Both the position numbers and the translations under genes were made by a program. From a bacterium (GTDB taxonomy: Bacteria; Patescibacteriota; Minisyncoccia; Phycocordibacterales; UBA9973): a stretch of DNA of 64,000 bases. The notes below the pieces were generated by a model. It made no database searches, was not told where the DNA came from, and saw only the letters and a list, made by a program, of their open reading frames with translations. Where the stretch lies: positions 5,424 to 69,423 of the forward strand of contig JBAXPX010000001.1 of the NCBI GenBank assembly GCA_037132055.1, read 5' to 3'. This document shows positions 8,562 through 63,668 of this stretch, one piece after another (within the stretch, counting starts at the first letter, position 1; each line of letters starts with the position of its first letter).

Positions 8562-9684
8562 CTCTCGGCAAGAGTGGGTTCAAACGAGTTACAACTTCAT
8601 AATTTATAGTATCTATTTTTTTGGCGATATCTTCTGCTGTTATTTCTTTATCTCCTTGCTTACCTATAAGTACAACTTCATCTTCTATGGATATATCTTT
8701 CAAGTGAGTTACATCTACCACAAACATATTCATTGCTACTCGCCCTAAAATTTTACATTTTGTACCTTTTATTAAAATTTCTCCAATATTTGATAATCCT
8801 CTATCGTATCCATCGGCATAACCTATAGGCACCACAGCTATTTTAATGGGTTCATAAGTCATATAAGTCAAACCATAACCCACAGTATGCCCTGCTGGTA
8901 AATTTTTTACTTGAGCAACCTTCGTTTTAAAAGATAATACTGGTTTTAATTCAAGTTTTTCCTTATATAGATATTTTATATGCTCACTCGGCCACAAGCC
9001 ATATATCCCTATACCTAAACGGACAAAAGTATTTAAACTTTTGTTTTTTTCATAAACTAAAAGCCCGGAAGTGGCTGAAATATGGGTTTGTAAATTTTTA
9101 AAGCCAAATTTTTCTGCTAATTTTATTGCTTCTTCATATTTTTTTATTTGTTTTTGTGCATGGGTGAAATTGTTTGTGTCTTCTATGTTTGCAAAGTGCG
9201 CATATAAACCAGTAAGTTTTACATTTTTACAATTTTTTACTTCTTTGAAGAATTCTTCTAATTCTTCTTTCATAAATCCTTCTCTCCCTAAATACGCATC
9301 TACTGATGCATGAACTTCTTGTTTTATTTTTAATTTTTTAGCTAGCTCATTTATTTCTTTTAATTTTTCAATAGAAAAAACGGACAAAATACAATCGAGT
9401 TTTATGGCTTCAGACAAATCTTCTTTTTGAATATAACCCAAAACAAATGTCTTTTTCTTTGTTACTTTTCGCAATAATTTAAGCTCTGAAAAACTATTTA
9501 CTTGAAAATAATCAGAATGTGGTTCTAAAATTTTAGCGACTTCATTTTGCCCATGACCATACGCATTCCCTTTTATTACTGCAATAATCTTCGTATTTTT
9601 TGATACTGATTTTAGTGCTTTGAAATTGTGTATCAAATTTTTCTCAGATAACTCTATATAAGAAATAGGCAAGTTTTTTTGCAT
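8551..9684 (-). CDS. alr: Alanine racemase
   Basis: PLP-lysine motif AVIKGNAYGHG. Confidence 0.8.
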   Translation of the reverse strand: MQKNLPISYIELSEKNLIHNFKALKSVSKNTKIIAVIKGNAYGHGQNEVAKILEPHSDYFQVNSFSELKLLRKVTKKKTFVLGYIQKEDLSEAIKLDCILSVFSIEKLKEINELAKKLKIKQEVHASVDAYLGREGFMKEELEEFFKEVKNCKNVKLTGLYAHFANIEDTNNFTHAQKQIKKYEEAIKLAEKFGFKNLQTHISATSGLLVYEKNKSLNTFVRLGIGIYGLWPSEHIKYLYKEKLELKPVLSFKTKVAQVKNLPAGHTVGYGLTYMTYEPIKIAVVPIGYADGYDRGLSNIGEILIKGTKCKILGRVAMNMFVVDVTHLKDISIEDEVVLIGKQGDKEITAEDIAKKIDTINYEVVTRLNPLLPRVIV

Positions 9685-9688
9685 CTTA

Positions 9689-10777
9689 TTAAACAGTAGT
9701 TTTTAATTTTTGGTCTCTTTTAAATCGTGCTATAGCAAGGTCAATCAATTTATCTAAGAGTTTCGGTAAGGAAAGTCCAGATGCTTCCCACATTTTTGGA
9801 TACATACTTATCGCTGTAAAACCAGGTAATGTATTTATTTCATTCACGATAATTTTATTATTTTTTGTCACAAAAAAATCTACTCGTCCCATACCTTCAC
9901 AACTTAAAGTTTTAAAAACTTTTACAGCCATCATTTGTATTTCTTTTATTGTCTTTTTGGGTAATTCTGCGGGTATCTTGCATACTGATTTATCGTCTAT
10001 ATATTTTGAATTATAAGAATAAAAATCAGCATTTGAAATTATTTCTCCAGGCAGAGATGCCAAAGGATTTTCATTTCCCAAAACAGAGCATTCTATTTCC
10101 CTACCATTGATATTTTCTTCAATGACAACTTTATTATCATACTGAAATGCATCTTTTAACCCAGCATAAAATTCTTTTTCGTTTTTTACTTTATGAATAC
10201 CAACCGAAGATCCAAGATTGGCAGGTTTAATAAATAAAGGTAAACCTAATTTTTTTGAAATTTCTTTAAATGAAATCTTCGCTGTTTTTTCCACTGCTAT
10301 AAATTTACCAATCGGAATACCAGCTTCTCGAAAAAGTCTTTTCATCACGTCTTTATCCATTCCGACAGCCGAACCAAGCACGCTCGGACCAATAAAAGGT
10401 ATTCCAGCCAATTTTAAAAATCCCTGCATACTACCATCCTCACCAAATGGACCATGCAATACTGGGAAAATAACGTCTAGTTTTTCACAGTTTTTCAAAT
10501 CACGCATACTCACTAAAGCACCAGATCCCTCGGTAGTAAGAATTACTTCATTATTTGATTTATTGAGTTTGATTAGTTTTGGGTCATTATTATTTAATAA
10601 ATAATTTGAAATATTACCCAATAACCACTTGCCATTTTTATCTATACCAATCGGTATAATTTCATATTTCTTCTTATCTAAAAAATTAATAACATTTTTA
10701 GCAGACTGCAAAGAAACTTCGTGCTCTGCAGATTTACCACCGAAAAGTACGCCTATTTTTAGCTTCTTTTTTGCCAT
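9689..10777 (-). CDS. ddl: D-alanine--D-alanine ligase
   Basis: KIGVLFGGKSAEHEVSLQSA at the N-terminus and an ATP-grasp C-terminus. Confidence 0.85.
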   Translation of the reverse strand: MAKKKLKIGVLFGGKSAEHEVSLQSAKNVINFLDKKKYEIIPIGIDKNGKWLLGNISNYLLNNNDPKLIKLNKSNNEVILTTEGSGALVSMRDLKNCEKLDVIFPVLHGPFGEDGSMQGFLKLAGIPFIGPSVLGSAVGMDKDVMKRLFREAGIPIGKFIAVEKTAKISFKEISKKLGLPLFIKPANLGSSVGIHKVKNEKEFYAGLKDAFQYDNKVVIEENINGREIECSVLGNENPLASLPGEIISNADFYSYNSKYIDDKSVCKIPAELPKKTIKEIQMMAVKVFKTLSCEGMGRVDFFVTKNNKIIVNEINTLPGFTAISMYPKMWEASGLSLPKLLDKLIDLAIARFKRDQKLKTTV

Positions 10778-14568: not shown

Positions 14569-14866
14569 ATCTTTTTTGTCCCGATCCCGACTCTTTGAGT
14601 CGTGGATCGTGGATCCTCGATTCCTTAAAATTTATTAATTTCTCAATAGCTGCGCGCTTCTTCCAGCTTTTCACTTGATATTCTCTTTTTCTCGCTTCTG
14701 ATAATGTTTTATACTCTTCAGTATATACGATTTTCCAAGGTAAATGAACCTTCGTAGATTTTACTAAGCCTGAATTATGCTGATTAAATCTCTTGTTAAT
14801 ATCCGCGCAGCTACCTACATAATACCTCCCATCTTTTATTGAATTTAGTATGTAAAGGTAAAACAT
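14558..14866 (-). CDS. Small stand-alone GIY-YIG nuclease-family protein (YhbQ-like)
   Basis: YLYILNSIKDGRYYVGSCADINKRFNQHN…KREYQVKSWKKRAAIEKLI. The C-terminal ~20 residues are encoded by a degenerate copy of the intergenic repeat GAGTCGTGGATC. Confidence 0.7.
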   Translation of the reverse strand: MFYLYILNSIKDGRYYVGSCADINKRFNQHNSGLVKSTKVHLPWKIVYTEEYKTLSEARKREYQVKSWKKRAAIEKLINFKESRIHDPRLKESGSGQKRYGA

Positions 14867-21220: not shown

Positions 21221-21256
21221 AAAGCCTTCCTTTTCAGGGAAGGCTTTTTTATTTTA
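21221..21256. terminator. Bidirectional intrinsic terminator (AAAGCCTTCC-ttttcag-GGAAGGCTTT + T-run)
   Basis: 10-bp perfect stem flanked by T/A runs between convergent genes. Confidence 0.6.
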
Positions 21257-21946
21257 TGATACTAAAACCGTAAACTCCCCTTTTTGTTTTACTGGATTTT
21301 TTGTGAGATAGTCTAAAAGACTAGCTGGGCTATCTGTTTTAAACTCTTCATAAATTTTTGTTATCTCTCGAGCAATACAAACTTTTTTATCAGGGCAAAA
21401 TTTATTTAGAGATTCTAATGTTTTTAAAATCCTATGTGGCGATTCATAAAAAATCATCGTTCTCTTTGCCTCTGCTATTTCTTTAAATAAAGTTTCTCTG
21501 CCTTTTTTATGCGGTAAAAATCCTAAAAATGTAAATTCATGAGTTGTAAGACCTGAGGCAGAAAGTGCGGCTATTATAGCAGTCGCACCTGGAATCGGGA
21601 TAATATTAACTTCTTGTGAAGGACCGTCCTTCACAAGATATTTTTCTCGTATTTTTGAAATGAGAATCGCACCCGGATCGGAAATTGTCGGTGTTCCAGC
21701 ATCAGATACAAGTGCTAGATTTTTTCCTTCTTTTAGTAATTCAAAAATTTTATCTGTTTTAGATATTTTGGATTGTGCATGATAACTCATTGTCGGCTTA
21801 TTTATGGAATATTTATCAAGTAACCTTTTAGTTATTCTAGTGTCCTCACAAAGTATCAAATCCACACTTTTAAGCGTCTCCACTGCCCTATATGTAATAT
21901 CACCCATATTGCCTATCGGCGTCGCCACAACGTAAAATTTAGACAT
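21254..21946 (-). CDS. rsmI: 16S rRNA 2'-O-methyltransferase RsmI
   Basis: FYVVATPIGNMGDITYRAVETLKSVDLILCEDTR. The CDS carries a 25-bp in-frame palindromic insertion at 21613-21637. Confidence 0.8.
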   Translation of the reverse strand: MSKFYVVATPIGNMGDITYRAVETLKSVDLILCEDTRITKRLLDKYSINKPTMSYHAQSKISKTDKIFELLKEGKNLALVSDAGTPTISDPGAILISKIREKYLVKDGPSQEVNIIPIPGATAIIAALSASGLTTHEFTFLGFLPHKKGRETLFKEIAEAKRTMIFYESPHRILKTLESLNKFCPDKKVCIAREITKIYEEFKTDSPASLLDYLTKNPVKQKGEFTVLVS

Positions 21947-26897: not shown

Positions 26898-27418
26898 TAT
26901 TTTACGGGTGAATTTAACATTGCTTTGATAATATCCTCTCCCTTACCTTTTTCTACGTAACCTTCGATAACCTTACGAACACCATCAGAAACTAAGACTG
27001 CAGCATCTTTGCGAACTTGTTCGTCTGCGTTCTTTTTTTCTTTTTCTGCATCAAGTTTTGCCTGCTTAATGATTTCTTCTTTTTCAGAAATAGCTTTATC
27101 TTTTGCTTCTTTTACTATCTCCTTGCCATCTGCTTGTGAAGTAGAAATTATTTGCTTTGCACTTTCTTTTCCTTCTCTGATGATTTCTTCTTTTTTGATG
27201 TTTGCATTTTGAACTTCGAGTTTTGCTTTTTCTGCATTATCTAGCCCATCAGTTATTTCCTTTGTTCTATCTTTCATTAATTTACTAAGTGGTTTTGCCG
27301 CCAACCAATAAATCAACGCAAAAACAAGCCCAAAGTTTACAATTTGTGCAATCATCAACTTCCAGTCTATATGAAATGTTGTTATTAATTCTTGCATGAT
27401 TTTTAATTCCAATTTCAT
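26897..27418 (-). CDS. atpF: ATP synthase b subunit
   Basis: A single N-terminal TM helix followed by a long charged helix. Confidence 0.75.
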   Translation of the reverse strand: MKLELKIMQELITTFHIDWKLMIAQIVNFGLVFALIYWLAAKPLSKLMKDRTKEITDGLDNAEKAKLEVQNANIKKEEIIREGKESAKQIISTSQADGKEIVKEAKDKAISEKEEIIKQAKLDAEKEKKNADEQVRKDAAVLVSDGVRKVIEGYVEKGKGEDIIKAMLNSPVK

Positions 27419-27419
27419 T

Positions 27420-27498
27420 TAAAATTAAAAATTTCAAGAGTCGTGGGTCCCCTTGTCCTTATGACTCCAAGGGCGAAGGCTCAGAAATTTTTGAATTT
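27420..27498. repeat. Copy 1 of a ~70-80 nt palindromic intergenic repeat (between atpF and atpE)
   Basis: Near-identical to 37212-37276 (core AAGAGTCGTGGRTCCCCTTGTCCTTATGACTCCAAGGGCGAAGGCTCAGAAATTTTTGA) and flanked by an AT-rich inverted repeat. Confidence 0.8.
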
Positions 27499-27509
27499 TA
27501 AAAGAAATA

Positions 27510-27815
<306 letters not shown>

Positions 27816-29118: not shown

Positions 29119-29260
29119 AAACTAAATGACAAGGAACCCTTTCTTAAAAGTCAGAACTTCTTTTTAAAAAATCGAAGCATAAAAAATATAACAAAAAAGA
29201 TACATTTAAGCAAACAAAAAATCGCCCTTAGGCGATTTTTTGTTTTAAAGTCTTTGAAAA

Positions 29261-29593
29261 TTAGTACTCTCGGCGACCACCGCGGTTTCCACCACCATAA
29301 CCACCATTTCCTCCTCCGAATCCACCAGTTCGTGGTGGACGAGCTTCCATTGGGCGAGCTTCATTTACTGTAAGCTTACGTCCTTCGAATTCTTGTCCAT
29401 TGAACATTGAGACAGCATTTTGTGCTTCTGCATCTGTTGACATTTCAACGAATCCAAAACCTTTTGAGCGACCGGACATTTTGTCCATGATAATCACAGC
29501 AGATGTAACGTTACCTGCTTGTGCGAAGTGCTCTTTTAAAGCATCCTCTTGAGTGCTGTAAGGGAGACCCCCTACGTATAGCTTTGTAGCCAT
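29261..29593 (-). CDS. RRM-type glycine-rich RNA-binding protein
   Basis: RNP1 KGFGFVEM, RNP2 LYVGGL, and a GGYGGGNRGG tail. Confidence 0.8.
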   Translation of the reverse strand: MATKLYVGGLPYSTQEDALKEHFAQAGNVTSAVIIMDKMSGRSKGFGFVEMSTDAEAQNAVSMFNGQEFEGRKLTVNEARPMEARPPRTGGFGGGNGGYGGGNRGGRREY

Positions 29594-36127: not shown

Positions 36128-37126
36128 CTACGAGCGAAGTTTCAAAATTTTAACCAAACTATCTCTGAATTTTTTTGTTGACTTATCGTCATACAAAGAA
36201 ATAGAAAAAACATTTTTGTTAATTTTTTTAAATTTTTCAATTTCTTTGTCAATGAGTTTTTCATTTTCCATTACATCAGTTTTAGTCAAAATAATTATTT
36301 CATCTTTTTTTGAAAGACCATTTTCTCCTAAATTATTTTTCTTATCATACGCCTCAAGTTCTTTTCTAATTTCTTTATAAGCTTTTAATAAATTGCTATT
36401 TTCAAAAGAGATTAAATGCGCAATCATTTTTGTCCTTTTAATATGACGTAAAAATTTTACTCCCAAACCTTTTCCTTCTGATGCTCCTTCTATCACTCCT
36501 GGAATATCTGCAATAATATAACCATAAAAATCTCCTAAATTTGGATCAAGAGTAGTAAAAGCATAATCCCCGACTTTTGCATCGGCATTCGTAAGAACAT
36601 TCAACAACGAAGATTTTCCTGCATTTGGAAGACCTACTAAGCCAATATCCGCAAAAAGTTCAAGCTCAATTATAAAATTACCATTTTCTCCCTCTTGTCC
36701 TGAGCGACATTCTTGTGGAGTTGTATTTGTAGAACTCTTAAAATGTTCATTCCCAAAACCTCCGTATCCACCATGCAATAATAAAACTTTTTGCCCTTCT
36801 TCGAGTAATTGCCATTTTTCTTCAGTTTGAGGGTTTGTGATAATAGAACCTATTGGCAATTCTAAAATAAAATCTTCACCATTTTTACCGTGCAAACTTT
36901 TATTTCCACCATCTTCACCTCGACCTGCAATAAATTCTTTTTTGGCTTTATATTTTGCAAGCACACCCATGTCTCGAACAGCAAGTGCAAAAAAATCTCC
37001 ACCACGACCACCATCTCCACCAGCTGGTCCACCCTTTGGAATAAATTTTTCTTGACGCCAACGAACAACGCCGTCTCCACCGCGACCCGCTTCCGCATAT
37101 ATTTTTATTTCATCAACAAATGCCAT
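36128..37126 (-). CDS. obgE: GTPase Obg
   Basis: Glycine-rich Obg fold GRGGDGVVRWRQEKFIPKGGPAGGDGGRGGD, followed by a G-domain GLPNAGKSS. Confidence 0.85.
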   Translation of the reverse strand: MAFVDEIKIYAEAGRGGDGVVRWRQEKFIPKGGPAGGDGGRGGDFFALAVRDMGVLAKYKAKKEFIAGRGEDGGNKSLHGKNGEDFILELPIGSIITNPQTEEKWQLLEEGQKVLLLHGGYGGFGNEHFKSSTNTTPQECRSGQEGENGNFIIELELFADIGLVGLPNAGKSSLLNVLTNADAKVGDYAFTTLDPNLGDFYGYIIADIPGVIEGASEGKGLGVKFLRHIKRTKMIAHLISFENSNLLKAYKEIRKELEAYDKKNNLGENGLSKKDEIIILTKTDVMENEKLIDKEIEKFKKINKNVFSISLYDDKSTKKFRDSLVKILKLRS

Positions 37127-37191
37127 AATTATTATATATTAGCACGAATTTAAAAATTCTCTTAAAAACTTTATCCTCGGTTTTTTTATCT

Positions 37192-37287
37192 TAAAATAGG
37201 AAAATAAAAATTTTAAGAGTCGTGGATCCCCTTGTCCTTATGACTCCAAGGGCGAAGGCTCAGAAATTTTTGATTTTCCTATTTTTA
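37192..37287. repeat. Copy 2 of the palindromic intergenic repeat, with a 14-bp AT-rich terminal inverted repeat (TAAAATAGGAAAAT / ATTTTCCTATTTTA)
   Basis: The core is near-identical to 27432-27497. It supplies the last ~14 codons and the stop of the upstream gene. Confidence 0.8.
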
Positions 37288-38206
37288 ATGCTAACTTAGC
37301 TAGTTTTATCGCTCCTTCTTTTGATTTTGCCACAGTAAGAAAAAGACCTTTATGACAAAAAACAGCATCTTTCACTCCTGTAACTTTTTGTAATTCTTCA
37401 TCTCTAAGCCCTGCCCATTTTTTGGGAAAATCTTTCTTATTCTTGAAAGTTTTAGTATTTTCTCTTATTGCCCTTATTCCCCACAAATTATCACTCCCTC
37501 TTGGATAAATCACAAAGAAAGATTCTTTAAATTTATTCAAAATATCTTCATCGTGAAAATGTTCATTTAAAACTAAAATCCTTTTATCCTTTGTTTTTTT
37601 ATAAATTAAATTTACTTTTTTTTCAGAAATAACTGCGTCTTCAATATGAATTATTTCCCTTGATAATATTTCTTTTGCTATCCTTACGGACTCTAAAAAC
37701 ATTTCTTCATTATTTGCTTTTTTTTCTCGTAGGGCTGGACGCATGGCAAAGAAAAAATGTTCAATAAAATAAGGCGAAATTTTATGTTTATTTTCCACTA
37801 AATCAAAACCATTATCAAAAGCGTCAATGGGAGCTACAAGATGATCGTCGATTATTTCCATAACTTCTTTCGTATTGCAAAGTTCTTTCCCAAATTTTTT
37901 CCAAACTAAACCAAAAGAAGAATATTCTATACCGTTTTCTCTTATACCTCCTCCGCCTTTTTGATGATGGTCAAAACGGTTTTTCTTCGGATCATAGATG
38001 CCTCCGACGTCAAAAACATAATCACCCCTTTTTACAAGCTCTTCATCACGAGTGCGAATTACCTTAAACTTATTCCCTTTTTTCTCAAGCATTAGAGATA
38101 AAGTCGCACAAGCAAAAATATCATCTGCGTGAAATGACCCATTGTGAGTTACTAAAAGTTTTTTATTTTTATTTTGTTTCATCGTAAAATTCTTCAAAAA
38201 TTTCAT
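37238..38206 (-). CDS. MYG1/UPF0160-family metal-dependent hydrolase
   Basis: LLVTHNGSFHADDIFACATL at the N-terminus; the C-terminal tail is encoded by the repeat. Confidence 0.55.
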   Translation of the reverse strand: MKFLKNFTMKQNKNKKLLVTHNGSFHADDIFACATLSLMLEKKGNKFKVIRTRDEELVKRGDYVFDVGGIYDPKKNRFDHHQKGGGGIRENGIEYSSFGLVWKKFGKELCNTKEVMEIIDDHLVAPIDAFDNGFDLVENKHKISPYFIEHFFFAMRPALREKKANNEEMFLESVRIAKEILSREIIHIEDAVISEKKVNLIYKKTKDKRILVLNEHFHDEDILNKFKESFFVIYPRGSDNLWGIRAIRENTKTFKNKKDFPKKWAGLRDEELQKVTGVKDAVFCHKGLFLTVAKSKEGAIKLAKLALKIGKSKISEPSPLES

Positions 38207-41988: not shown

Positions 41989-42134
41989 CTTTTTCGTTTT
42001 TATATTGTCGAAGCGTGTCCCACATATTTTGGTACACGCTTCTTTTTTTGATTTTAAGTAAAAAAATGATATATTTTCCTCAGGGCTAAACCGCATAAGC
42101 GGTCGCCCGAACAAATTTATCAAATTTGTTTTAG

Positions 42135-42206
42135 GGCCCTATCGTCTAACGGCTAGGACGGATCCTTCTCAAGGATTAAATTCGGGTTCGATTCCCGGTA
42201 GGGTCA
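42135..42206 (+). tRNA. tRNA-Glu (anticodon CUC)
   Basis: GGCCCTATCGTCTAACGGCTAGGACGGATCCTTCTCAAGGATT…TTCGATTCCCGGTAGGGTCA. Confidence 0.75.
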
Positions 42207-42371
42207 CAAACTAAATTCTATTTTGTTTTGTCTTTTTTGTTAAACCAAGTTTTTTTATTATTATTCTCAGGATGGTTTAAAATTTTTTTACTACATCAAA
42301 AAATTAAACACATAAAAAGTTCCATCCTCATAGATCTTTTTATTTACTTGAAATTTTGATATAATAAAAAA

Positions 42372-56228: not shown

Positions 56229-56375
56229 GTAAAAAAACCAAAACAAGATTTTTTCGGTACGGATTTTTTGAAGCTTAAAAAATCTCATCGAGCCTGAGGC
56301 TCTCAGAGCCGAAGGCCTGAAATTTTCGGCTCGTCAGCCTCAAAACCCCTTCAAAATCTTGTTTTGGTTTTTTAC
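56229..56375. repeat. ~147-nt nested palindromic element between ftsZ and trxB (23-bp AT-rich outer stem; GC-rich inner hairpins)
   Basis: GTAAAAAAACCAAAACAAGATTTT…AAAATCTTGTTTTGGTTTTTTAC encloses GAGGCT-ctca-GAGCCGAA-[ggcctgaaatt]-TTCGGCTC-gtc-AGCCTC. The core CGAAGGCCTGAAATTTT resembles CGAAGGCTCAGAAATTTT of the 27.4 kb and 37.2 kb repeat. Confidence 0.6.
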
Positions 56376-56398: not shown

Positions 56399-57382
56399 AT
56401 GATATATGACCTTATAATTATTGGCGGAGGGCCGGCTGGATCTGCTGCTGCTGTGTACGCCGCTCGCAAACGCTTAAATACTTTATTTATTACCGATGAA
56501 TTCGGAGGGCAATCTATCGTGTCTGAAAAAATATATAACTGGATTGGCACAACTGAAATCGCTGGGTCAAAACTTGCGGAAGATCTCAAAAATCATGTAC
56601 TAGCTAATAAAGGAGAAAAGCTTACTATAAAAGAAGGTTTAACCGTAGTAGCCATTGTGAAGATTGTGAAGGACGGTCCTTCACAAAATTCACAAAACTG
56701 TGAAGGACCGTCCTTCACAAGCACAGGTATTTTTTCAATAAAAACTGAGTCGGGAGAAGAGTTTGAAACAAAGACTGTTTTAATAACTACAGGAAGTAAG
56801 CGTAGAAAATTAGAAATAAAAAACGCTGACAAATTGGAACATAAAGGACTCACCTACTGTGCTACTTGTGATGGACCAATGTTTTCTGGCGCTGATGTTG
56901 TAGTTGTCGGCGGGGGCAACGCTGCTTTTGAAAGCGCTTCTCAACTTCTCGCATATTGTAATTCCGTAACAATTTTAAATAGAAGTGATTCATTTCGAGC
57001 TGATCAAATAACGATAGACAAACTTTCAAAAAATCCAAAACTCAAAATTATAAAAAATATTGAACTTCTGGAAGTTTTGGGTGATAAATTTGTAGAAGGA
57101 ATAAAATATAAAGATATAAATACAAACAAAGAAAACACTCTCAATATCACTGGGATTTTCGTAGAAATAGGCCAAATTCCAAATACTGAATTCGCAAAAG
57201 ACCTTATTTCCCTTGATAAAATAGGCAAAATTAAAATAGACCCATGGACTGGAAAAACAGAAACTTCAGGCATTTGGGCAGCTGGTGATTGTACTAATAT
57301 TCTCTATCATCAAAACAACATCGCCGCTGGCGATGCTGTAAAAGCTTTGGAGGATATTTATTTAACAATACACACTAAATAA
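56399..57382 (+). CDS. trxB: Thioredoxin reductase
   Basis: IIGGGPAGSAAAVYAARK and the redox CATCDG. It contains about 60 bp of in-frame palindromic insert (56664-56720). Confidence 0.8.
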   Translation: MIYDLIIIGGGPAGSAAAVYAARKRLNTLFITDEFGGQSIVSEKIYNWIGTTEIAGSKLAEDLKNHVLANKGEKLTIKEGLTVVAIVKIVKDGPSQNSQNCEGPSFTSTGIFSIKTESGEEFETKTVLITTGSKRRKLEIKNADKLEHKGLTYCATCDGPMFSGADVVVVGGGNAAFESASQLLAYCNSVTILNRSDSFRADQITIDKLSKNPKLKIIKNIELLEVLGDKFVEGIKYKDINTNKENTLNITGIFVEIGQIPNTEFAKDLISLDKIGKIKIDPWTGKTETSGIWAAGDCTNILYHQNNIAAGDAVKALEDIYLTIHTK

Positions 57383-60063: not shown

Positions 60064-60094
60064 TGTCCGTTAATTATATCAAAACTTATGTATT

Positions 60095-60155
60095 TTGCGG
60101 TGTGTATTGGACAAAGTTCGAATTTATTTCGAACTTTGTCCAATACACACCGCAA
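60095..60155. repeat. 61-bp perfect palindrome (28-bp arms, 5-nt centre) abutting the left inverted repeat of recombinase unit 1
   Basis: TTGCGGTGTGTATTGGACAAAGTTCGAA-tttat-TTCGAACTTTGTCCAATACACACCGCAA. Confidence 0.8.
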
Positions 60156-61790
60156 CATTTGGAAATTGGGTTCCCCGCGAAAAAATGCGTCGGGGCGAAG
60201 CACCGACGACTGGGCTGAATTCCCGCCAAACCCCGCCCCCGCAAGGATTTCCCACACGGCGGAGCGCTCTTCGTTACCAATACAAAATATATGAATCAAA
60301 CCAAAAAATTTTTTATATATACTCGCAAGTCGACGGACGACAAAGACCATCAGATTAGAAGTATTTCTGATCAGCTTTCCGAATTGAAAGAATTAGCGTT
60401 GAAAGAACGATTAGAAATAGTTGATATCTTTGTCGAGAAGCAGTCTGCCAAAATACCAGGCCGTCCGATATTTAACGAAATGCTAGAACGTATGGAGAAA
60501 GGCGAAGCATCTGGTATTTTGGCGTGGCATCCTGATAGACTTGCGAGAAACTCGGTAGATGGAGGAAAAGTCATCTACCTCGTTGATACCGAAGTTATAA
60601 AAGATTTAAAATTTTCGACTTTTTGGTTTGATCCGACACCGCAAGGCAAATTTATGCTTTCAATCGCTTTTTCCCAATCCAAATATTATGTGGATAATTT
60701 ATCAGAGAATATTAAACGCGGACAAAGAAACAAAGTGAAGGAAGGAATATGGCCTCAAAATGCTCCGCTTGGTTATGTAAATAAAGAAGGTGGTGGAATT
60801 GAGCCAAATATTATTCTTGCTCCACTTATTAAAAAAGCATTTGAGGCCTATGCAACAGGCAACTTCACTTTGCGACAAGTCCGCGATAAATTTAACGCAC
60901 TTGGTTTAACAGGAAAAAGCGATGGAGACCTTTCGGTGTCTAATTATCAAAAACTTTTAAGAAATCCGATTTTTACGGGAATGATGAGATATAACGGCGA
61001 AATTTACGAAGGCAAACACGAACCGATTATTTCAAAGAAACTTTTTGATTCCGTTGCCGAAGTGATGAGTAAAAAATCTAAATCGCATAGCAAAGGATTG
61101 AAGCCGTATATTTATCGGGGATTTTTCCGTTGTGACGAATGTGGCTGTTTTATCACTACCGAACAACAAAAAGGTCATAACTATTTACGATGTACGAAAC
61201 GGAAAAATCCTTGCAATCAGAAATATACACGAGAAGAACTCATCACTTCCCAAATACAAGAAGAAATCAAAAAAGTTTCTTTGCCACTCGATTGGTTAGA
61301 ATGGATGATTGGTGAAAATAAAAAAGACCAATCACCCGAAGTAGAATCGAGTACGCTTTTTGTTGATAATGTAAAATCCGACATTTCTCTTTTAGAATCT
61401 AAAATTGAGAAGCTGATGACGATGTATTTAGAAAATGCCCTAACACTCGACGAATATCGCGATATGAAAAATAAGCTGATGAACGAAAAACAGCTTCTCA
61501 AAGAGAAATTGTCGGATTTAGAACAAAAAGCGAATAATCGGTTCGAACTTACCGAAAAGTTTTTGAAATTCAATATGGAATTGGTAAACGATAGAACAAA
61601 TGAAGAAAATATTCATTTGTTCAAAAAAGTCGGTTCGAACTTTAGAATAAAAGATCGAACACTCCTTTTTGAGCGCTCCGCCGTGTGGGAAATCCTTGCG
61701 GGGGCGGGGTTTGGCGGGAATTCAGCCCAGTCGTCGGTGCTTCGCCCCGACGCATTTTTTCGCGGGGAACCCAATTTCCAAATGTTGCGG
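60150..61790 (+). mobile_element. Recombinase unit 1: a large serine recombinase gene bounded by 120-bp perfect inverted repeats (IR-L 60150-60269, IR-R 61671-61790). IR-R abuts the 3' end of tRNA-Ser.
   Basis: The two 120-bp segments are exact reverse complements of each other. The recombinase ORF starts 21 nt after IR-L and reads into IR-R. Confidence 0.6.
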
Positions 61791-61814
61791 AGGGTACAGG
61801 ATTTGAACCTGTGA
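60291..61814 (+). CDS. Large serine recombinase (resolvase N-terminal domain, recombinase domain, zinc ribbon); its C-terminal ~48 codons are encoded by IR-R
   Basis: YTRKSTDDKD (catalytic Ser), WHPDRLARN, the recombinase-domain stretch LLRNPIFTGMMRYNGEIYEGKHEPIIS, and the zinc ribbon CDECGCF…YLRCTKRK. Confidence 0.75.
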   Translation: MNQTKKFFIYTRKSTDDKDHQIRSISDQLSELKELALKERLEIVDIFVEKQSAKIPGRPIFNEMLERMEKGEASGILAWHPDRLARNSVDGGKVIYLVDTEVIKDLKFSTFWFDPTPQGKFMLSIAFSQSKYYVDNLSENIKRGQRNKVKEGIWPQNAPLGYVNKEGGGIEPNIILAPLIKKAFEAYATGNFTLRQVRDKFNALGLTGKSDGDLSVSNYQKLLRNPIFTGMMRYNGEIYEGKHEPIISKKLFDSVAEVMSKKSKSHSKGLKPYIYRGFFRCDECGCFITTEQQKGHNYLRCTKRKNPCNQKYTREELITSQIQEEIKKVSLPLDWLEWMIGENKKDQSPEVESSTLFVDNVKSDISLLESKIEKLMTMYLENALTLDEYRDMKNKLMNEKQLLKEKLSDLEQKANNRFELTEKFLKFNMELVNDRTNEENIHLFKKVGSNFRIKDRTLLFERSAVWEILAGAGFGGNSAQSSVLRPDAFFRGEPNFQMLRRVQDLNL

Positions 61815-61874
61815 TCCACTTTCGCGGATTCCGGTTTTCGAAACCGGCGCCTTCAACCTCTCAGCCAACCCTCC
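61788..61874 (-). tRNA. tRNA-Ser (anticodon CGA), long variable arm
   Basis: Reverse complement GGAGGGTTGGCTGAGAGGTTGAAGGCGCCGGTTTCGAAAACCGGAATCCGCGAAAGTGGATCACAGGTTCAAATCCTGTACCCTCCG. The D-arm matches the type-II Ser tRNA pattern. Confidence 0.75.
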
Positions 61875-61936
61875 CCTATAATAAAATCTAACATTTTTTG
61901 CGATTTTTTCAAAAATAATATAGTATTAGAAAATAT

Positions 61937-62008
61937 GGCCCTATCGTCTAACGGTTAGGACATCGGCTTTTCAAGCCGGTAATCCGGGTTCGATTCCCGG
62001 TAGGGTCA
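61937..62008 (+). tRNA. tRNA-Glu (anticodon UUC)
   Basis: GGCCCTATCGTCTAACGGTTAGGACATCGGCTTTTCAAGCCGGTAATCCGGGTTCGATTCCCGGTAGGGTCA. Confidence 0.75.
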
Positions 62009-63668
62009 CCTAAAGAGAGATTGTGGAAATTAGAAATATGGAGCGGGTTTTCAAAATGAAAACTCGCACTGGGTAGCCCGCTTCCGCCCTTTGCGGAAGC
62101 GACAAAATCCCAAATCTCGCCAGAATGCATATGAATTGTTTTGTCCTTGATTTCAGGGTTAGAGCCAATTTTTTGAAAAAATTGCTTCCATTCAATTTGA
62201 TTGTCAGTTTTTTCCAAATCAACGGCTTCTTTCAAGGACAAAACCAAAATCCGCAAGGGTTCGATCCAATACTTTCTCTGTTGTCCAAAATCTTTCAAAC
62301 TTTCCTCAATTCCAGCTTTTTGACGAAGTAAAATATCTTTTCGTTCCAAATATTGTGAGCGTTCAATATCTCCGTCTAAATATATAGAAACAAGTTTATC
62401 TAGTTTTTCTTTAATTTCGGAAAGTTCAGATTTTAGATTTTGGACAACATTTCCTTTTTCTGAAATTGATTCTTGTTCCCATTCGTCAATTTTCTTTTCC
62501 ATTTTTTCAATTTCAGAAAAAGGAATTGACGCTTTTTGAAGCGAAGTTTTGATTTGTTCGGAGAGTGTGGATTCTGAAAGATACGGCTGAGAGCAAAAAC
62601 CTTTCTTTTTTGTGCAACGATAATAAATATAACGAGTACCAAAACGATTGATAGAATATTGAGCCGTAATCATACTTCCACACTCGCCACATTTGGCAAA
62701 ACCGAGAAAATGAAATGGATGAGCGATTTTAGATTTTCTCGGTTTTTGCCGAGACTTCAAAACTTTCTGCACTGCTTCAAAAAGTGTCGGAGAAAGTATT
62801 GGTTCAAAGCTTCCATTGTGCCATTCGTTATGATGTTTGATAAATCCTAAATATGCACGATTGGTAAGTAATCGCACAATGCAAGCTTTGGCAAGTGGCT
62901 TTCCTATTTTTGTGACAAGTCCTAAATCCGCCAAATACTTCGCTAGTCCTTCAATAGTGTAAATATTTTTTGAATATTCTTCAAAAGCTCTTACTACAAT
63001 TTTTGAATATACAGGATGAGGTTCAATAGTTTTAGTTTTTAAGTTATTTATATATCCATACGGAGCTTTTGTCAGCCATTCCCCACGGCGAAGTTTTTGG
63101 CGGATTCCTCGTTTTACATTTTCAACCAAGTTGTCAGAAAAATATTTGGATTGTCCGAAAGCCACTTGCAACATGAATTTCCCTTGCGGAGTTGGTTCAA
63201 ACCAAAACTGCGGAAAGCGCAAAGAAACAATTTTGCCAGTATCAACAAGATAGATAACTTTTCCACCATCAACACTATTTCTCGCTAATCGGTCAGGATG
63301 CCATGCTAATATTCCATTTGCTTCACCTTTTTCTATCTTATCTATCATTCTGGCAAATTGTTTTCGTCCTGTGGTCTTTGCGCTTTTCGATTCGGTAAAA
63401 GTTTCTTTTACTGAAATATTTTCTCTGCGAGCATATTCTTTCAATTCAAAAAGTTGAGCTTCAATACTCATTACTTGTTTATCGTCATCTTCCGTTGATT
63501 TTCTCGCGTAGAGAAAATATTTGTTTTGATTTGAGGAATTCATATGCATTCTGGCGAGATTTGGGATTTTGTCGCTTCCGCAAAGGGCGGAAGCGGGCTA
63601 CCCAGTGCGAGTTTTCATTTTGAAAACCCGCTCCATATTTCTAATTTCCACAATCTCTCTTTAGGTGA
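62006..63668 (-). mobile_element. Recombinase unit 2: a paralogous large serine recombinase gene bounded by ~132-bp perfect inverted repeats (IR-L 62006-62137, IR-R 63537-63668). IR-L begins within the last 3 nt of tRNA-Glu(UUC).
   Basis: Exact reverse-complement identity over about 130 bp. The repeat covers the recombinase start codon (ATGCATATG) at one end and the tRNA 3' end (TCACC) at the other. Confidence 0.6.
62138..63549 (-). CDS. Large serine recombinase, paralog of the 60291-61814 gene. The track's ORF extends to 61948 across IR-L and the tRNA; the true stop is uncertain.
   Basis: YARKSTEDDDKQ (catalytic Ser), GILAWHPDRLARNSVDGGKVIYLVDT (identical to the stretch in unit 1), recombinase domain, and the zinc ribbon CGECGSMITAQ…YYRCTKKK. 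Confidence 0.7.

Follow-up and report, generated by a model that had tools for sequence, protein, structure and literature searches.

The Correia elements of Neisseria (CREE/NEMIS) form hairpins that RNase III binds and either cleaves or protects, which alters the expression of adjacent genes (PMC2649163). Like the element described here, they measure about 100-150 nt, place inverted-repeat arms around a conserved core, lie beside or between genes and are co-transcribed, and they are probably its closest analogue as far as its action is concerned. However, the terminal repeats of CREE are 26 nt long and conserved, their target duplication is TA, they contain an IHF site, and a genome has hundreds of them, whereas the present element has variable outermost ends, no TA or other duplication, a low copy number and no sequence similarity to CREE.

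REP/BIME and ERIC sequences of enterobacteria are likewise intergenic imperfect palindromes that are transcribed within operons. REP hairpins are said to stabilise the upstream mRNA segment, as Newbury et al. reportedly found in 1987, and the action of ERIC is orientation-dependent. REP sequences are only 20-40 nt long, begin with a conserved GTAG tetranucleotide and have a RAYT transposase of their own, and ERIC sequences of about 127 nt are conserved throughout. The element studied here is 87-97 nt long and has no GTAG head, and its frozen core on freely covarying arms is found in neither REP nor ERIC. Copy numbers of REP and ERIC vary widely among taxa (PMC10969869). Rickettsia palindromic elements (RPE) are palindromic repeats that join protein-coding sequence in frame, while SPRITE, other terminator-like mobile hairpins and QMITE2 of Coxiella are small hairpin repeats that cluster immediately downstream of ORFs (PMC10969869). 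RPE are comparable to the coding tail of the MYG1-like gene described below and to the short GTGAAGGACNGTCCTTCAC palindromes inside trxB, but they are about 150 nt long, insert inside genes and encode a conserved peptide, whereas the coding overlap of our element is a single secondary read-through. In contrast to SPRITE and QMITE2, the element fails a terminator scan and is located inside operons, not at operon ends. The intercistronic hairpins of RNase III, e.g., in the early mRNA of phage T7, consist of long stems with an internal loop in co-transcribed spacers. These three features are shared by the element, but the T7-type sites are not a dispersed repeat family. An analogy with integron attC sites was set aside, as their ends are conserved and their centre varies, the reverse of the situation here.

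The window, i.e. the whole stretch of 64,000 nt that was analysed, contains two copies of the element (Table 1). The first-pass annotation had described them as near-identical repeats at 27420-27498 and 37192-37287, and a repeat finder indeed returns a 77-nt direct repeat in the same orientation with 95% identity (27422-27498 vs 37201-37277). The two substitutions that it had counted in about 66 common nucleotides are also recovered in the central ~66 nt, as a C/T change and a G/A change at GTGG[G/A]TC, and the inner pair CCCTTG-N12-CAAGGG is present in both copies, as it had stated. The two cores are identical at 47 of 48 positions, and a 24-mer of the core occurs exactly twice in the window, against 0.00 occurrences expected from shuffles. 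Both copies are imperfect palindromes that fold into long hairpins, with a fold energy of -26.4 kcal/mol for copy 1 and -31.1 kcal/mol (z -5.4) for copy 2. Across the copies, z-scores range from -2.4 to -5.4, i.e. the folds are more stable than those of shuffled sequences. The overall architecture is that of a ~48-nt GC-rich core on an AT-rich stem of 18-25 bp. The claimed AT-rich terminal inverted repeats exist as complementary arms in each copy, but no terminal repeats are conserved across the family. Eight other contigs, from different samples, belong to the same species, with both atpE and the atpE/atpF spacer identical to those of the window, and one same-species contig terminates within the repeat. 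The species is represented in JGI samples 3300021520 and 3300020228, in the ERZ273000xx assemblies and by MAGs such as GCA_964565115.1.

Both copies lie on the + strand in the family-model orientation, and all four flanking genes (atpE, atpF, the MYG1-like gene and obg) lie on the - strand. Copy 1 fills the atpE/atpF spacer, beginning 1 nt past the atpE stop codon and ending 14 nt ahead of the atpF ATG. The gap between the element and the downstream start is 11-20 nt in the atpE/atpF copies and in two copies at other junctions (L012 and L013; L numbers designate loci outside the window), and about 65 nt between copy 2 and obg. At all four junctions at which the element is found, the flanking genes are co-directional and the orientation of the element relative to them is constant, although four out of four corresponds to a p of only 0.125. 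The flanking genes of the four junctions are functionally unrelated and reveal no regulon logic, with atpE/atpF recurring in six lineages. Since the element fills spacers between co-directional genes, it would be transcribed at least within the sense operon mRNA, and we infer that it is co-transcribed.

Table 1 Features of the element, its flanking genes and its first relatives (window coordinates)
Feature	Position	Strand	Remarks
Copy 1 (family 1)	27412-27508	+	Family-model orientation, antisense to flanking genes; covariance-model match 27417-27503, 108.6 bits
Copy 1, inverted-repeat arms	27412-27434 / 27486-27508		
Copy 1, conserved GC-rich core	27436-27483	+	AAGAGTCGTGGGTCCCCTTGTCCTTATGACTCCAAGGGCGAAGGCTCA
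Copy 2 (family 1)	37193-37285	+	Covariance-model match 37196-37282, 105.8 bits
Copy 2, inverted-repeat arms	37193-37219 / 37259-37285		
atpE, ATP synthase c subunit	27510-27779	-	Upstream of copy 1; Pfam ATP-synt_C on identical product
atpF, ATP synthase b subunit, 166 aa	26897-27397	-	Downstream of copy 1; Pfam ATP-synt_B; start as in L002
MYG1-like gene	37238-38206	-	Upstream of and overlapping copy 2; Pfam PF03690, E 3.5e-68
obg GTPase gene	36128-37126	-	Downstream of copy 2; Pfam GTP1_OBG and MMR_HSR1
Last 14 codons (IGKSKISEPSPLES) and TAA stop of MYG1-like ORF, element-encoded	37238-37282	-	Translation
L010, L011 copies			MYG1/obg junction of relatives
L014 copy			atpE/atpF of a distant relative
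L012, L013 copies			Two new junctions: comM-like/small ORF-lexA; 2-hydroxyacid dehydrogenase/glycerate-kinase-like

Two covariance models were used to delimit the family, R1 built from seven copies and R2 from ten. With filters off and E <= 10, R1 retrieves only copies 1 and 2 as family members in the window. Of the four family sites proposed there by the first-pass annotation, these two stand, while those at 14590-14625 and 56229-56375 do not. Over 223 kb (the window and 14 loci), R2 finds 11 elements at four junctions and nothing further at E <= 1; the roughly 159 kb that come from relatives and lie away from the known junctions contain no additional copy. A metagenome scan with GTGGNTCCCCTTG-N12-CAAGGGCGAAG yielded five genuine copies, L010 to L014; a contig of 193 kb had a single pattern match. 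The L012 and L013 contigs otherwise have no detectable nucleotide similarity to the window. Further atpE/atpF copies are located in the relatives L016, L020, L021/L022 and L025. By covariance model, the element is present at four gene junctions, and the related Paceibacteria lineages that carry it number at least 10. AtpF homologs are labelled Paceibacterota, Patescibacteria group or Woesebacteria by their sources, which identifies the host of the window as a CPR bacterium. The proposed repeat family does therefore extend beyond the window, to relatives otherwise lacking nucleotide similarity to it, rather than being confined to it.

Other searches were negative. In a scan of a genome collection, the 21-mer CCAAGGGCGAAGGCTCAGAAA had a single match, due to chance, in a coding sequence of a Ruminococcaceae MAG; this 21-mer is too specific and the negative result says little, because L012, L013 and L014 differ within it. 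Viral-contig scans with three core patterns gave no match, and BLAST against phage and plasmid collections gave no similarity to the element. Using Rfam 15 at gathering thresholds, the only matches in the window are six tRNAs, and in a permissive Rfam scan the best scores over the element are 12-19 bits, against thresholds of 45-90. Known RNA motifs (hammerhead, twister, HDV-like, K-turn, sarcin-ricin, SRP domain IV and the CsrA GGA motif) were compared by eye and do not fit, in agreement with Rfam. In a literature search, no structured palindromic intergenic repeats were found described for this phylum. On the sequences compared, the element is best described as a low-copy, previously undescribed structured palindromic family specific to a clade of Paceibacteria (Patescibacteria/CPR).

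To compare orthologous junctions, a check that the first-pass annotation had suggested, AtpF homologs over a range of identities were collected with their contigs, and the element turns out to be present in some lineages and absent in others. The atpE/atpF spacer is filled in six lineages (the window, L014, L016/L017, L020, L021/L022 and L025) and empty in four, with spacers of 52 nt (L015), 20 nt (L018/L019), 26 nt (L023) and 40 nt (L024). Similarly, the MYG1/obg junction is filled in three (the window, L010 and L011) and empty in two, L016 (3 nt) and L018 (60 nt). In a rough clustering of the hosts by AtpB/E/F, filled and empty lineages are not separated, although a tree of three short proteins is weak, and host distance and element type are discordant. 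The comparison shows an element that has been copied to, or exchanged among, at least four junctions and repeatedly gained or lost at orthologous ones.

Some of these spacers hold other structures. The empty atpE/atpF spacer of L015 carries a different short palindrome, and that of L024 an 11-bp AT palindrome whose arrangement differs from the element. In L021 (3875-4000; also in L022), the spacer of 229 nt contains a degenerate family-1 copy and an unrelated long hairpin, CCTGTAGTAGATTTTCAAATT...AATTTGAAAATTCACTACGGG. L018 is without the element at atpE/atpF and has a 203-nt atpB/atpE spacer (9537-9741) with several GC-rich hairpins, e.g., CCGCCTCAGGCGG and CCTGCCCGACT...AGGCGGGAGTCG. Just upstream of the atp operon, the window (29261-29593) encodes a small RRM-domain RNA-binding protein. 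Its gene is syntenic in L016, L018, L020, L021 and L023, and is kept in most of the relatives examined, with or without the hairpin element.

The core and the arms of the element differ markedly in conservation. Between the window and L014, the core is identical at 48 of 48 positions, compared to 195 of 355 (55%) four-fold degenerate sites of the flanking atp genes; under neutrality, such a core would have a probability of ~0.55^48, roughly 3e-13. The arms of these two copies are identical at only 25 of 40 positions, yet 18 of 18 pairs are formed. Likewise, copy 2 and L010 share 82 of 87 nt, against 44% at the four-fold sites of obg. The outer helix comprises 23 pairs, with 98.7% of cells paired and two-sided changes in 14 of the 23, in an alignment that was fitted to the covariance model. 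These values were reached by none of 500 shuffles, and pairing falls to 37-62% when the partner is slid by 1-3 columns. For instance, GAG/CTC has become GCG/CGC, and in L020 and L025 both arms have grown by one matching base. Two competing pairings leave the inner stem ambiguous: CCCTTG/CAAGGG is 90% paired and shows no two-sided change, and TGTCCTT/AAGGGCG is 93% paired, with one pair that changes from T-A to C-G in three sequences. Loop-loop pseudoknots of GGGUC with GACUC and of UCCUU with GAAGG were considered as well; they show no covariation in the variant copies. Compensatory pairs, as in structured cis-acting RNAs, are thus found in the outer helix (in the model-fitted alignment and next to an ambiguous inner stem), and an association with one gene or pathway is not found across the four junctions. 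Taken together, the alignments show a stem maintained by compensatory change and a core conserved far beyond the neutral expectation, a pattern that speaks for a selected structured element and against drifting selfish DNA.

In one host group this relation is altered. The arms in L016, L020, L021 and L025 are window-like (34/39 except in L021), and the cores of all four have diverged to 69-77% identity and share derived features, namely a GTGTNGG insertion and a GCG base. The arms of copy 1 are identical at 32 of 39 positions to those of L013, from another locus in another organism, a higher value than that for its positional ortholog L014. In most copies the inner 13-16 nt of the arms are similar and the outermost ~10 nt are locus-specific, and in L012 and L014 the arms differ throughout. 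Insertion of a core into a pre-existing local palindrome was rejected as an origin, because a relationship among the arms can be recognised in most copies, which makes the arms part of the element. Since core and arm identities differ, core and arms have had partly separate histories. Such histories fit either vertical descent with a changed constraint in one host group or exchange between copies.

Copy 2 runs into the MYG1-like gene. The first-pass annotation had assigned the last ~14 residues and the stop codon of this protein to the repeat, which agrees with the 14 codons and TAA located within the element. The ORF ends in ...KLAKLALKIGKSKISEPSPLES, and the Pfam MYG1_exonuc domain stops at residue 307 of 322. 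Element-bearing relatives stop upstream of the element, after ...LALN in L010 and ...LALLA in L011, and MYG1 of element-free relatives ends in ...IAVES (L016) or ...LALNLS (L018). As the relatives keep a native stop upstream of the element, the window lineage must have lost about 20 nt including that stop. Judging from this comparison, the codon donation is real but secondary, having come about through loss of the native stop and not at insertion. In a collection of 5.8 billion proteins, nine candidates shared words with the concatenated element-encoded peptides and none scored; read-through into the element appears to be rare, or the search underpowered for such short peptides.

By analogy with the systems above, the reading that we prefer, with confidence and doubt in about equal parts, is that of a duplicative, selected structured element that would act as a hairpin in operon mRNA, uncoupling upstream from downstream cistrons. 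The element would fold into a long hairpin in the polycistronic transcript, and this hairpin would be recognised by a trans-acting factor. This factor might be a double-strand nuclease of the RNase III type that acts on the stem, a sequence-specific protein that binds the loops of the core, or both. A hairpin left at the 3' end might then protect the upstream message, e.g., that of atpE, whose product each complex requires in many copies. The downstream gene, e.g., atpF, would have its expression reduced or insulated, its start being 11-20 nt past the stem in most copies. The recurrent atpE/atpF placement would agree with the need for excess c subunit. Where a native stop is lost, translation would enter the element and gain a short tail and a stop, as has happened in the MYG1-like gene. 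A point against this mRNA-hairpin reading is that a generic stabilising hairpin needs no conserved 48-nt core. The core might be the docking site of a dedicated Paceibacteria factor, making the element a lineage-specific module of structured RNA (or single-stranded nucleic acid) that is copied from one operon spacer to another to uncouple expression and, between atpE and atpF, sets the c:b stoichiometry of ATP synthase in these minimal-genome bacteria; this is a tentative idea that we would sooner doubt than accept. Post-transcriptional control and repeat biology are little known in candidate-phyla-radiation bacteria, with their tiny genomes and tightly packed operons, and a short recognisable element would offer a handle on expression uncoupling within their operons, for which lake and groundwater metatranscriptomes already exist. 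Should it prove to be no more than a palindromic repeat of low copy number, it would add an ordinary case to a well-known class; its unusual features are the frozen core with covarying arms and the recurrent ATP-synthase context.

Among the rival explanations, the one with most weight, although unlikely, is a vertically inherited, protein-bound cis-regulatory RNA, ancestral at atpE/atpF where it tunes the c:b ratio, with few duplications, some losses and no transposon mobility. A canonical core that the window shares unchanged with L014, the most distant host, the derived core features shared by the related hosts L016, L020, L021 and L025, and the strong covariation of the outer helix would all be expected under such descent, as would an arm identity that tracks host distance (87% to L016/L020/L025 and 63% to L014) and a filled atpE/atpF spacer in six of ten lineages. 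However, at least four independent losses at atpE/atpF would be required, the other three junctions have no ATP synthase link, no Rfam family matches, and the host tree is the weak one from three short proteins. A purely selfish MITE- or REP-like element, mobilised in trans and without host function, in which the similarity of the copies reflects recent transposition, ranks after this and is a more doubtful explanation still. It would account for a palindrome in intergenic spacers, for copies at non-orthologous junctions in different organisms, for presence and absence at orthologous junctions, for the arms of copy 1 resembling L013 more than the ortholog L014 and for the other palindromic families that gather in the same spacers. 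Mobility in the sense of a MITE, which the first-pass annotation had derived from the repeats, is nevertheless not supported. Shared terminal inverted repeats are lacking, as the outermost ends differ among copies, and no consistent direct repeat is found at the flanks of nine copies, the sole candidate for a target-site duplication being a 2-nt GA in L012. The copy density is very low, with two copies in the 64-kb window and none beyond the known junctions in the 223 kb. No transposase is encoded in the window, only two large serine recombinases whose flanking repeats are unrelated to the element. Moreover, recent movement of whole elements predicts arms as conserved as the core, which they are not, and the old, diverged copies L016, L020, L021 and L025 keep 15-18 of 18 outer pairs with compensatory changes, unlike neutral decay.

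The two remaining rivals concern the strand and the end of the transcript. That the functional strand is antisense to the genes, as a small antisense RNA or as a single-stranded DNA hairpin in replication or recombination, seems improbable to us. It is suggested by the + strand, which folds 1.5-8 kcal/mol better in every copy and on which 98.7% of the outer helix forms standard pairs, against 93.4% on the mRNA strand. The arms contain three independent wobble events that, together with a conserved T.G, point the same way, all being G.T on the + strand and none A.C (3:0), with two further T.G in the inner stem of RNAalifold, but these counts are small and the preference is suggestive, not significant. 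On the other hand, no promoter-like site was found upstream on the + strand, the hairpin occupies whole spacers and leaves no room for an independent gene, and the GC skew makes the + strand the leading-strand template, whereas it is the other strand that is normally exposed as single-stranded DNA. An intrinsic (Rho-independent) terminator or attenuator duplicated by chance ranks last and is very improbable, despite a GC-rich centre between A-rich and T-rich arms directly past a stop codon, a layout of A-tract, GC and T-tract that is also seen in other terminator-like hairpins of the window, e.g., 29212-29245. A GC-rich stem followed by an unpaired U-tract is found at neither copy: the terminator scan calls no site at copy 1 or 2 on either strand, and the T-run is paired within the stem instead of trailing it, with no U-rich sequence past the full hairpin. 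In addition, copy 1 is part of the atp operon, in which expression has to continue into the downstream genes, and a terminator has no need for a conserved, asymmetric 48-nt core. Two other functions were tried and rejected: an outward promoter inside the element has one weak match, in copy 2 only, with a -35-like part that is not conserved in the variants, and for a small peptide gene the ATG in the loop is absent in L010 and the frame differs in L016.

The two sites that do not belong to the family are palindromes of other kinds. The region 14590-14625, described by the first-pass annotation as a degenerate third copy, gives no covariance-model match with filters off at E <= 10, and all that it has in common with copy 2 is the 12-mer GAGTCGTGGATC (blastn-short E = 0.13). 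The core sequence was said to occur there twice; GTGGATC is in fact tandemly doubled, but the whole 12-mer is not. Within 14585-14625, the tandem GTGGATC comes after a GC-rich palindrome (CCCGATCCCGACTC-TTT-GAGTCGTGGATCG). The palindrome sits in the ~30-residue tail of a GIY-YIG ORF, past the Pfam domain (residues 1-71 of 102), and may be another palindrome captured into a coding tail. The second region, 56229-56375, was reported to contain a diverged core, but 56234-56296 scores only 11 bits (E ~7) and gives no BLAST HSP. The resembling stretch, CGAAGGCCTGAAATTTT, is mostly within a 32-nt central segment that is absent from its L010 homolog, and the resemblance to family 1 is therefore best read as chance. 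The structure belongs to a separate hairpin family. It is a 147-nt element between ftsZ and trxB with a fold energy of -59.6 kcal/mol (z -8.3). Its homolog in L010 (8662-8776) adjoins the family-1 copy there and, although its central 32 nt are missing, has outer arms that are different but complementary. A remnant is located at ~37150-37190 of the window. In this second family, the orientation relative to the genes varies by locus, and no Rfam match lies above threshold.

A short perfect palindrome, (T)GTGAAGGAC[C/G]GTCCTTCAC(A), gives six strand-matches against 0.05 expected. It is located at 21614-21639, 56664-56689 and 56698-56723 of the window, and at L015 9952-9965 and L020 7571-7585. Two copies are in frame in trxB, where they add ~20 residues (KIVKDGPSQNSQNCEGPSFTS), and one is inside the ORF 21254-21946, which looks like an RPE-style insertion into coding sequence. 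In the relatives it is found in the atpE/atpF spacer (L015) and in the spacer after prfA (L020). Several independent palindromic families have thus settled in the spacers of CPR bacteria, and some of them have come to lie in coding sequence. The two serine recombinase genes of the window are paralogous (60291-61814 on the + strand and 61948-63549 on the - strand) and each is bracketed by inverted repeats of 131-132 nt, 97% and 100% complementary. A tRNA-Ser and a tRNA-Glu gene lie between them, and a 31-nt near-perfect palindrome is located at 60092-60158. The whole region, 60092-63668, is possibly an element that has integrated at tRNA genes or can invert there. The tRNA-Glu genes at 42132-42207 and 61934-62009 (CTC and TTC anticodons) are 82% identical, and the second abuts a repeat flanking a recombinase gene.
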